Positions 3,953-48,900 of a DNA stretch of 64,000 bases are shown piece by piece. The notes beneath the pieces were generated by a model. The model saw only the letters and a list, made by a program, of their open reading frames with translations, did not search any database and was not told the origin of the DNA. The DNA is from Eledone cirrhosa (taxonomy: Eukaryota). Location of the stretch: positions 1,488,001-1,552,000 of the forward strand of contig OZ024766.1 of NCBI GenBank assembly GCA_964016885.1, in the 5' to 3' direction. Every line of letters begins with the position of its first letter. The first letter of the stretch is position 1. The translations under genes and the position numbers were made by a program.

Positions 3953-6900
3953 CTGCACAGGGGGAAGAAAAAAATGGAGTTTGTTTTAAAGAAATTCATT
4001 CTTATTTAATCTAAAATATAATAAAGTAAGGAGTGCGGGACTGTGTCCTGAATATATTTTTTATCCCGTTAGTAAAATAAGTTGGATTACTTAGAATAAA
4101 TAATAAATAAATATTACATAATTTATCTACTAAATTTCGTGGCTGTTGATTAAATATAAATATTCTTATATGTAATAATTGCTTATTTTAAGATTCACTT
4201 CTTTAAAATGTTTAAATGTCAATACTTCCAGTTAAGATATAACATACACTATATAATATCACTTATATAAACATCCATATATTTACATTGTTATATCATA
4301 ACGTTGATATTTCTGTCGATAATTTTCTCCTTTTTTGTTTTCATAACATTTCACCGTAATCCAGTTTATATATAATATCATCTTTTTTAAATGTATCATG
4401 GATTACTTCACTGATTACAGAAGACAGTGTAACACAGTCTCTCTCCAGTTTCTGTGGATATTGTCAATTACGATATTATTTGACGTATCATATCTACATG
4501 CATATATATGTGTGTATAATATCAATATACACACTACACATGCCAGCAGAAAACCACCTGAGGGGTGTTTTTTTTTGCTGGTATATATAATAATTAACAC
4601 CCTAAAATAATCTACCAGGAAATATCTAAAAACAGTTTGTTAATTCAAATGTTTATAGTATCTTTACTGGTGGACAGATTGTTGTGAATATTTACAGTAT
4701 TACAGTAAAGACTTTAATATTTAATGTGATGTAGTCATAGTGTTGTTTTGTACTAAATGTTTATAGTATCTTTACTGGTGGACAGATTGTTGTGAATATT
4801 TACAGTATTACAGTAAATACTTTAATATTTAATGTGATGTAGTCATAGTGTTGTTTTGTACTAAATGTTTATAGTATCTTTACTGGTGGACAGATTGTTG
4901 TGAATATTTACAGTATTACAGTAAAGACTTTAATATTTAATGTGATGTAGTCATAGTGTTGTTTTGTACTAAATGTTTATAATATCTTTACTGGTGGACA
5001 GATTGTTGTGAATATTTACAGTATTACAGTAAAGACTTTAATATTTAATGTGATGTAGTCATAGTGTTGTTTTATACTAAATGTTTATAATATCTTTACT
5101 GGTGGACAGATTGTTGTGAATATTTACAGTATTACAGTAAAGACTTTAATATTTAATGTGATGTAGTCATAGTGTTGTTTTGTACTAAATGTTTATAATA
5201 TCTTTACTGGTGGACAGATTGTTGTGAACATTTACAGTATTACAGTAAAGACTTTAATATCTAATGTGATGTAGTCATAGTGTTGTTTTGTACTAAATGT
5301 TTATAGTATCTTTACTGGTGGACAGATTGTTGTGACAATTTACAGTATTACAGTAAAGACTTTAATATTTAATGTGATGTAGTCATAGTGTTGTTTTGTA
5401 CTTTCCAAGAATGTCTTTGTAATGTGGTTTCATGTGGTACAGGACTTTAAGAGTTAAGCAGTGAAATTTGGAGGTTAAATGGTGATGGTGATGATGATGA
5501 ATATGATGACGGTGATGATGATGAATAAGATAACGGTGATGATAGAGACGAAGAATAATAATAATAATAAAAAAAAAAAAACTGAAAGAAATAACCGATG
5601 CTGTCACGGTTGCTAGGTAACTAACCTGAGCTTCTGGTTGGTCGGAACCGAGGGAGGCAGCCCCTAATTTCACAACATCCGACAACTGCGTGATGGTCTT
5701 TACAGCCATTTGGGCAGCATTAGCTAACTGCTCCTGGTTAGAGGCAGCCCCAGCTACCAACAGTTTCGTGTCATCTACCAGGGCTTTGGCAGTCTTGAGG
5801 ATATTTTCTCTGAGGAGACAGATTTACAGGTGGATAGTTAGATATACAGATAAGGTACGTATCTATGTATACAAGCAGATATATATATATATATACACAC
5901 ATATATACACATATATACACACACACACACACCCTAACATACACACACATATATATATATATACACACACACATATATATATATATATACACACACACAT
6001 ATATATATATATATACACATATATACACACATATACACACATATATACACATATATACACACACACACACACCCTAACATACACACACATATATATATAT
6101 ATACACACACACATATATATATATATATACACACACACATATATATATATATATACACATATATACACATATATACACACATATATACACATATATACAC
6201 ACACACACACACCCTAACATACACACATATATATATATATACGCACACACCCTAACATACACACACATATATATATATATATACACACACACACCCTAAC
6301 ATACACATATATATATACACACATATATACACATATATGCACACACATATATATATATATATATATATATATATACACACCCTAACATACACACACACAT
6401 ATATATATATATATATATACACACACCCTAACATACACACACATATATATATATATATATATACACACACACCCTAACATACACACACATATATATATAT
6501 ACACACACACACCCTACACATATATATATATATATACACACACACCCTAACATACACACACATATATATACACACACACACCCTAACATACACATATATA
6601 TATATATATACACACACAACAACTAGAACAGTAACCGTGACTACGTACTTGTGATCTGTGAAATTCTCTTCATCCTCCGTGTTCAGGGTCCCGGCTGTGG
6701 CAAACATGATTGTCGTGTTGAGATCACCGATTATTCCACTTACGGTACTGGCAGCATTTATGCAGGCCTGGGTACCCCTAGAGCCTGACTGTAGCGATGC
6801 CAGGACATAAGAAGCCTGTTAAGACATAAAATAGAGACATGGTGTGATGTGGTGGCATTTATGCAGGCCTGGGTACCCCTAGAGCCTGACTGTAGCGATG

Positions 6901-45900: not shown

Positions 45901-48900
45901 GATGTTGTAAAGACACACAGTGTAATGATAGCATAGTGGTGGTAGAGTACTGATGTAGTGTAGTGGTTCCATAAGACCTACCTTAGCACAAGCAACAAGC
46001 AGAGATGTTGCAAGAGCACACTATGTACGAGTGATGGTGGTAGTGATGGTAATGTAGTTGTTACATGAGACCTACCTTAGTACAAGCAAAAGGTTGAGAT
46101 GTTGTAAGAGCTACTGTGTAGTGGTAATGGCAGTTGTAATGGTGTAGTGTTAGTGGCAGGGATGTAGATGTAGAGATGGTAATGTAGTTGTTACAGGAGA
46201 CCTACCTTAGCACAAACAACAAGCTGAAATGCTGCAAGAGCACACTGTGTAGTGGTAATGGTGGTAGTAATGGTGTAGTGGTAGTGGAAGAGATGTAGAT
46301 CTAGAGATGGTAATGTAGTTGTTACATGAGACCTACCTTAGCACAAGCAACAAGTTCATATATTGCATGAGCACGGTGTCTAGTGATAGTATAGAGGAAA
46401 AGATGGTAATGTAGTTGTAACATGAGACCTACCTTAGCACAAGCAACAAGTTCATATATTGCATGAGCACGGTGTCTAGTGATAGTATAGAGGAAAAGAT
46501 GGTAATGTAGTTGTAACATGAGACCTACCTTAGCACAAGCAACAAGTTGGGATGTTGCAAGGGCACACTGTGTAGCTGAGTTGATCACTTTATTCTGAAG
46601 GGCTTGGTCTTCACACTTGCGAGACACATCTTTAGCTTTCAGGACCAATGCAGCAGTAGCATTGGCAACAGCTTTTGCCAAGGCCAGTAGAGTGTCCTAA
46701 GGAGATAGAGATATACACACACATTTATATATATACATACATATATATATATAGGCCTCAGCTGAATGGCTGGAACAGGTAAAAAAGTATATATATATAT
46801 ACATACACACACATAATGTATTTATATAAATATAAATTTCTGTGTGTATATATATATATATATACACACACACACACACATTCACCTACATATACACACA
46901 CACAGATACATACACACACACACACATTCACATACATATACACATGTATATATACATATATATACACACAGAGATACATACACACACCCATTCACATACA
47001 TATACACATGTATATATACATATATACACACATACACACACACACATATACATACACACACACATGTATATATAATGCAAGAAATGTAGCAATAGCCGTA
47101 TCAGTAGTGGTGGTCTTACTTGGAAGGAGTGGTCCAGTTCCCCACCTTCTCCAACACCCTTCATTATATCATGACTGGCGTCGCCAACTTTGTGAGCAGC
47201 CGTGACAATGTTTTGGTTTGGCTGAAATTAAAAGACAAACAGACAGACTCTTAGTACAATTATTTATACATAGCGATGATGATGATGATGATGATGATCT
47301 TATATTTAATTGTTTCTACTTTAGGCACAAGGCCAGGAATTACCCAGTACATTACTGGTACTTTATTTTATCGACCCCGTAAGGATGAAAGGCAAAGTCA
47401 ACCTCGGCGGGATTTGAACTCAGATCGTAAAGGGACATAACTATGCTGGAAAGCATGGCGTCCGACCCTCTACCGATACTGCCAATTCACCGCCATGATG
47501 TTCTTATATTTAATGATGGGAGACCTGTGAAACTGTGTCCAGTTTATTATTTTACAACACGTTATTAAAATATGTTGGATTACTTTGAATAAATCCTGAA
47601 TGAATCTAAACTATAATAAAGTAAGGAGTGTGGGACTGCACCCTCAATATATTGTTTTACTCCGTTTGTAAAATAAGTTGGATTACTTTGATTAAATAAT
47701 TGTTTCTACTTTAGGCACAAGGCCAGCAATTACCCAGTGCATTACTAGTACTTTATTTTATCGACCCCGTAAGGATGAAAGGCAAAGTTAACCTCGGCGG
47801 GATTTGAACTCAGAATGTAAAGGGACGTAACTATGCTAGAAAGCATGGCGTCCAACCCTCTACCGATACTGCTAATTCACCCACTTTGAATAAATAATGA
47901 ATGAATATTACATAATTTATCTACTAAATTTCATGGCTGTTGATTAAATATATTTTATAGCTTATTTAAAGATTCACTTCTTTAAAATTGTCAACACTTC
48001 CGGTTAGCAGCCGTTATATTATAACACTTATAATCGCATATATTTCCGTCGCCAATTTTCTCCTAATGCAGTTTATATATAATGTCGTCTTTTTTTTTAA
48101 TATATCATGTATTACTGATTACAGAAGACAGTGTAACACAGGCTTCGTTTAATTTCTGTGTATATTGTCAATTAAGATTTTATTTGATGTATCATATCTA
48201 CATGTATATATATACTTGTGTATAATATCAATATACACACTACACTTGCTAGCAGAAAACCACCCGTACGGTGGTTTTTCTGCTAGTATCATGTAATTTA
48301 TCTACTAAATACCTCAGCTCTTGATTAAACATAAATAATCTTATATAAATGTATTGCTTATTTCAAGATTGACTTCTGTTAAAACTTTCAAATGTTAACA
48401 CTTCTGCTAGTGTTCATCATAATGTTTATATTTCCGGCACAAGGCCAGCAATTTAAAGGGAGGGGCAGGGAGTTGATTACATCAACAGAAAGGGAGAGAG
48501 AGACAGAAAGTGAGATAGACAAAGAGAAAGTGGGAGAGAGAGGGAGACAGACAGAGACAGAGAGAGAGAGAGAGGAAGAGAGAAAGTGGGAGAGAGAGAG
48601 GGGGAGAGAGAAAGTGGGAGAGAGAGAGGGGGAGAGAGAAAGTGGGAGAGAGGGGGAGAGAGAAAGTGGGAGAGAGAGAGGGGGAGAGAGAAAGTGGGAG
48701 AGAGAGAGAGAGAGAGAGAAAGTGGGAGAGAGAGGGAGACGGACAGAGAAAGTGGGAGAGAGAGAGGAAGACAGACGGACAGAGAGAGAGAGAGAGAGAG
48801 AGAGAGAGAGAGAGAGAGAGATGCTTACCCCTCTAGTTCCAGGTTGTGCAGCATTAAGTAGATCTGAAAAGGCTCCAGCTAACAGCTTAGCAGCATCTAA

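Follow-up and report, generated by a model that had tools for sequence, protein, structure and literature searches.

The talin gene of Eledone cirrhosa carries, beside several of its splice junctions, near-identical copies of those junctions, which raises the question of whether the copies are made by a process directed at splice sites, are used in splicing, or are neutral products of ordinary duplication. We addressed this question in a 64,000-nucleotide (nt) window, that is, the whole stretch analysed (assembly GCA_964016885.1, contig OZ024766.1, positions 1,488,001 to 1,552,000 of the forward strand; positions below are those of the window). A preliminary description of this DNA had proposed that a junction-biased stuttering process creates arrays of competing splice sites within the gene. 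We found four talin junctions copied in tandem into 19 look-alike sites, and it is probable that these are neutral 'mirage' minisatellites that arose by ordinary local duplication, with the copy nearest the full exon still used.

The exon map was built from mollusc talins by protein search and keeps the exon numbering of the preliminary description (w14, w26, w38).

3827..63632, minus strand (read from 63632 to 3827): talin gene; 40 constitutive exons, colinear with relatives' talins, the 5' and 3' ends lying beyond the window

All 40 exons (w1-w40) are joined by GT-AG splicing and give 2,003 codons with 0 stops. Identity is 97.1% (1944/2003) to Octopus vulgaris talins that cover the whole model and 93.5% (1872/2003) to that of Argonauta hians; judged by its sequence, the gene is an octopodid talin. 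Exons have a median length of 130 nt and introns one of 908 nt; of the 64,000 nt of the window, 27,480 (43%) are covered by Tandem Repeats Finder (TRF). Two cassette micro-exons were also seen on the minus strand. One (24 nt, TVSSKELQ, 32090-32113) lies between w27 and w28 with AG and GT ends, and four of nine named O. vulgaris isoforms have a near-identical insert of eight amino acids. The other (30 nt, 26513-26542) lies within the 14.7-kb intron 29; it matches a 10-amino-acid insert in eight of the nine named O. vulgaris isoforms, which is absent in the Argonauta and Logan proteins, and it is real alternative splicing of the talin gene.

When all 80 splice sites of the 40 exons were scanned for copies, local multi-copy sets were found at four, with 19 extra sites in total: six copies of the w14 donor, four of the w26 acceptor, two of the w26 donor and seven of the w38 acceptor. 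Amplification at w14, w26 and w38 had been described before and was located by the scan, and the w26 donor copies were added as a fourth set.

46529..46696, minus strand: exon w14, 168 nt; authentic donor after 46529
46305..46548, minus strand: young w14 donor array; 96-nt unit of 20 exon nt plus donor; extra donors 46433 and 46337
45834..46304, minus strand: older w14 donor copies 46206, 46076, 45982 and 45879; units of 131, 130, 94 and 103 nt
34577..34696, minus strand: exon w26, 120 nt; acceptor and donor both copied
34647..35267, minus strand: w26 acceptor array; extra acceptors 34816, 34951, 35071 and 35206; 50 exon nt per unit
34113..34327, minus strand: w26 donor copies 34294 and 34146; each with the donor and 34 exon nt, embedded in a TAC/TA microsatellite
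6649..6815, minus strand: exon w38, 167 nt
6754..7530, minus strand: w38 acceptor array; 101-nt unit of 39 intron and 62 exon nt; seven extra acceptors, 6916 to 7522
3185..3215, minus strand: w40 donor look-alike, probably an old single copy; 625 nt downstream of the authentic donor

The GT or AG dinucleotide is kept in all 19 copies, and 17 of them score like a real site on a matrix made from the window's own 40 sites, the exceptions being the outermost w14 and w38 copies. The earlier view that the arrays at w14, w26 and w38 present identical competing sites, among which the authentic one has to be selected, is borne out. In each array a complete exon is preserved at one end, with the authentic site closest to it: first for donors, last for acceptors. 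The w14 copies fall into two age layers: the young donors at +96 and +192 have 98-99% identity to the authentic junction, and the older ones at +323, +453, +547 and +650 have 86-91% identity and carry up to 47 exon nt, the mismatches by rising distance being 0, 1, 4, 4, 6 and 4 per 42 nt. At w26, the acceptor copies (-120, -255, -375 and -510 from the authentic site at 34696, with periods of 120/135 nt) are 100% identical and form two identical 255-nt dimers, so that five acceptors share 50 identical exon nt and at least 29-59 nt of intron; the donor copies, at +283 and +431 from 34577, have 96-98% identity. The w38 copies have 97-99% identity to the junction at 6815, and their inner units differ at 0-5 of 101 nt and carry distinct variants; the outermost (7522) has a truncated intron part in which only 8 intron nt match. 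A look-alike of the w40 donor at 3202, in the same intron, matches at 25 of 31 nt against a background of 15-21 of 31 for the other 75 sites and is probably an old single copy. Look-alikes of the w5 donor and the w21 acceptor, both distant and at 83%, were rejected as chance level before the sets were counted.

Of the 19 extra sites, six keep the frame and meet no stop, two of them being the young w14 donors and four the copied w26 acceptors. The other 13 lead to stops: at codon 52 for all seven w38 copies, at codon 68 for all four older w14 copies, and after a frameshift for both w26 donor copies. The preliminary description had held two arrays to be in frame and stop-free and every extra site of a third to yield a stop; this stands for the young w14, w26 acceptor and w38 copies, and has to be amended in that the older w14 and the w26 donor copies also end in stops. 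Its suggestion that periods are biased to multiples of three found no sign of support, as two of four arrays and six of 19 sites are frame-neutral, which is what chance allows.

Read evidence was drawn from contigs of four of seven runs (X1-X4; the restriction-site-associated DNA sequencing runs X5-X7 were left out) and covers 45590-46710, the w14 region. Runs X1, X2 and X4 are of one sample, S1, which may be the source of the window, the share of X4 being 0.08. Loop contigs of 123 or 126 nt, the size expected of a 96-nt cycle with 31-mers, lie on the young w14 array in all three S1 runs, and the older, diverged copies are covered by X1 and X2 contigs. The w14 arrays are real and present in short-read contigs, which answers, for this exon, the possibility of an assembly artefact that had been raised with the original proposal. 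The depth of the loop was ~1.4 (X1) and ~1.0 (X2) times single copy, which suggests 1-1.5 young units in S1 against two in the window (at low depth and in one sample), and may reflect length variation or noise. The X1 and X2 contigs also differ from the window at 45832, 45911 and 45979 at full depth; another haplotype or individual, or consensus errors, are possible sources.

How the w14 copies are treated in splicing is indicated by a contig of run X3 (6,871 nt, depth 52.7) that runs through w13, w14, w15 and w16 and, starting at the authentic w14 donor, leaves out precisely the 823-nt intron. None of the runs listed, X3 included, is registered as RNA, and the contig was taken as transcript-derived solely from its GT-AG splicing. 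Apart from this joint, X3 leaves most of intron 14 uncovered, to which no weight was given. No joint from a copied w14 donor to w15 was listed among the contigs of X1-X4, which drop rare forms. The authentic w14 donor is the predominant form. Six other joints in the region were set aside as repeat matches (20-24-nt sides in TGG/TAG-rich sequence, with non-GT-AG ends or inserted letters). By its length, the X3 contig could follow the canonical path to a point 150 nt beyond w40. If the duplicated exon pieces of 50 and 62 nt were often included, a contig running unbroken across w26 and w38 would hardly be expected.

Arrays of this kind are known from two other groups. In amphioxus, globin genes and Adh3 contain minisatellite-like intron-exon boundary duplications, known as mirages, which may involve either boundary and keep AG/GT in most units; they show 81-100% identity, divergent edge units, unit sizes of 10-160 nt and length instability, and their origin is called unclear (PMC3087553). 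Regular splicing is undisturbed by them in Adh3 and in the globins BflGb6 and BflGb9, and it was suggested that new introns or exons could form from them (PMC3087553); further cases are troponin C and PGBD5 (PMC3902484). The talin units likewise span real junctions, head-to-tail at the w14 donor and the w26 and w38 acceptors, the w26 donor copies in their microsatellite being a looser fit; they keep AG/GT and have homogeneous inner and divergent edge units. At w14, splicing is regular in the one spliced contig. Unlike the amphioxus cases, the talin arrays occur in a cephalopod, and a single gene has four junctions copied, w26 at both its ends.

In humans, the first unit of the 37-nt variable number tandem repeat (VNTR) in intervening sequence 7 (IVS7) of F7 spans the exon-intron border, and its identical pseudo-donors are silent (PMC1557585). 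As cited in the same source, copies in lamin B2 (100 nt) and PDGF (81 nt) are also silent, and 6-16 and CBS intron 13 use the nearest copies (PMC1557585). The donors at talin w14 resemble those of F7, lamin B2 and PDGF in that, as far as the predominant form is concerned, splicing takes just the first, most upstream one among identical sites. The human VNTRs affect donors, with one array per gene, whereas two of the talin arrays consist of acceptors with the authentic site last, so that the 5'-to-3' scanning model proposed for the F7 donors would by itself be insufficient to explain the choice in talin. Internal tandem repeats have also been described as altering human exon-intron structure, alongside intron gain by tandem duplication, with minisatellite expansion at boundaries a possible source of new splice forms (PMC2812944); the changed transcripts there are backed by RNA, whereas no new exon, intron or isoform is seen in talin, where the read evidence covers w14. 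No cephalopod mirage case was found in our searches of openly licensed PMC papers and bioRxiv. By their sequence features, the talin arrays match the known repeats of the mirage and F7 type and extend them to a cephalopod.

How could ordinary duplication have produced four such sets in one gene? Once its arrays are collapsed, the gene has a junction every ~650 nt, and given this spacing and a tandem repeat load of 43%, we computed that a random 100-nt unit would span a junction 13-27% of the time. The units were probably born by slippage or template switching at short words common to the exon and the nearby low-complexity intron. The novel joins lie at such shared words (a CCC run for the w26 acceptor, TAC for the w26 donor and CTACAC for the older w14 units), and w38 has two variant joins that differ by five exon bases, which would fit such an origin with unequal exchange as a later step. 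The identical w26 dimers and the two age layers at w14 suggest growth by such exchange. Duplications that broke talin would have been purged, and the survivors would be those in which one end still holds a complete exon. At w14, and presumably at w26 and w38 too, splicing uses the exon-proximal site. Its choice would be explained most simply by pairing of sites across the exon (exon definition), which would account for the donor and acceptor directions alike, and nonsense-mediated decay (NMD) could clear leakage at 13 of the 19 sites, though not at the six in-frame ones.

Whether junctions attract arrays beyond this expectation was assessed with 28 complex arrays listed by hand, 22 of them local and six with dispersed copies; several local duplications overlapping transposons were left out. 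Each array was collapsed to one unit (that of the w26 donor set at ~75 nt), and the units were placed at random in the resulting 53,705 nt with 82 junctions, one micro-exon included. Four arrays span a junction. Five nulls, run on 22 or 28 arrays, gave expectations of 1.83-3.74 (P 0.10-0.54); with the 12 local arrays whose units measure at least 50 nt, the expected number was 1.62-3.22 (P 0.065-0.41). The preliminary description had also pointed to five further minisatellites that directly abut splice sites. These are present and end 3-30 nt from a junction, and none of them copies the GT or AG of that junction.

10335..10425: 13-nt minisatellite; begins 3 nt past the w35 donor, GT not copied
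14381..15715: ~40-nt unit with embedded (AT)n; ends 15-50 nt before the w30 acceptor (15 nt by the edge first described, 50 nt by the TRF edge), AG not copied
43471..43690: two-copy 121-nt duplication; ends 25-30 nt before the w18 acceptor
43926..44662: 79-nt minisatellite; ends 26 nt before the w17 acceptor
61895..62525: 41-nt minisatellite; begins 17 nt past the w3 donor

Several points weigh against neutral duplication. The four spanning arrays exceed the expectation in every null, and the list of arrays was curated by hand. Among the 24 non-spanning arrays, seven have an end no more than 35 nt from a junction, against ~1.5 expected when units are placed over the whole gene (nominal P ~0.001, again ~0.001 at 50 and 100 nt, and 0.01-0.02 at 20 nt). 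Both ends of w26 are copied, and a fifth, old copy is probable at w40. For splicing there is a single contig, from a run that is not registered as RNA, in a class of data that loses rare forms, and the use of the nearest pseudo-donors in human 6-16 and CBS makes leakage plausible (PMC1557585).

An alternative is a mutational process linked to junctions, which would make tandem duplications start preferentially at or across them, the copies being non-functional; R-loops, pausing during transcription or the edges of nucleosomes at exon borders could be behind it. Such a process would explain the proximity excess of the whole-gene null, the copying of w26 at both ends, the at least two rounds in which w14 was struck and the probable copy at w40, and the unclear origin of the amphioxus mirages leaves room for it. 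The spanning count, however, is not significant in any null. When the placement of each array was confined to the intron that holds it, using tool-derived edges and counting both micro-exons, six of 24 arrays lay close to a junction against 3.65 expected, and the excess was not significant (P 0.12, range 0.09-0.39), because many host introns are only 130-450 nt long after array collapse. The proximity thresholds were moreover set after the data had been seen, and the window was picked for its junction pattern. We regard a junction-linked process as possible though unlikely; a modest junction bias is possible. The stuttering process first proposed lost its footing on the same two counts, in that spanning arrays are not above chance and the proximity signal is gone under the within-intron null.

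It is very improbable that the copies are used, the in-frame w14 and w26 copies lengthening the talin rod and the out-of-frame ones tuning the talin level through NMD. The six in-frame, stop-free sites, the real-site scores of all but the outermost w14 and w38 copies, the pseudo-donors employed in 6-16 and CBS (PMC1557585) and the conserved cassette micro-exons of the gene itself would speak for use. Against it, the spliced contig shows the authentic w14 donor alone, 13 of 19 sites lead to stops, and periods are multiples of three in only two of the four arrays. Use of the copied sites would add peptides of 32-170 amino acids, intron-derived and partly proline-rich, inside a conserved helical rod, and none of the 12 aligned relatives' talins (other species included) has an insertion at the w14, w26 or w38 boundaries. 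The isoforms or NMD tuning once suggested for the copies are accordingly not supported by the data at hand, and rare use is possible. That the near-identical arrays are assembly or consensus artefacts can scarcely be credited. In favour of this reading are unit identities of 97-100%, the sameness of the two w26 dimers, a gap in the window and a w14 loop depth below the window's two copies; against it, the loop recurs in 3/3 S1 runs (a sample that may be the window's source), the older w14 copies lie on X1 and X2 contigs, and the w38 units carry distinct variants.

The talin arrays extend a little-noticed repeat type of lancelets and humans to a cephalopod, and they are a warning for annotators, since copied junctions mimic exons and split alignments. 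The w26 acceptor array would also be a natural test of acceptor choice without the confounding effect of NMD, unlike donor-only cases such as F7, because in this conserved gene all five acceptors keep the frame without a stop, so that NMD cannot filter their products. A genome-wide junction bias, if true, would bear on the origin of new exons and introns. A bolder scenario, which we consider distinctly unlikely, is that junction-seeking duplication keeps multiplying splice sites in octopus genomes, and that the w26 array either yields talin rods of varying length by leakage or has its site choice settled by exon definition alone, readable allele by allele.

Some further features were observed. 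In the 14381-15715 array, the 40-nt unit contains the word TTAAC, which in the last copy lies ~25 nt upstream of the w30 AG; if TTAAC is a branch-point motif, as we assume, this array may multiply a branch point. Several other repeats belong to dispersed families: a 108-nt satellite unit recurs at 4647-5402, 16810-17004 and 53630-53791, and the 77/78-nt arrays (42831, 50683 and 63746) and the 48/49-nt arrays (2132 and 13044) derive from dispersed repeats. For a 53-nt tandem array at 318-1421 (~16 copies, with a nearly palindromic unit), no dispersed copy was seen within the window. Inverted repeats flank long (AT)n at 21640-21720 and 22420-22530, and at 40335-40666, and resemble miniature inverted-repeat elements. 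As to sequence quality, a 200-N assembly gap lies at 38954-39153, and a homopolymer-rich stretch at 49600-49900 seems poorly polished. Finally, a full-length match to 5S rRNA (Rfam RF00001, 106.5 bits) was found on the minus strand at 30169-30287, inside a dispersed repeat and followed by a poly-A run; it is likely to be a retrocopy.

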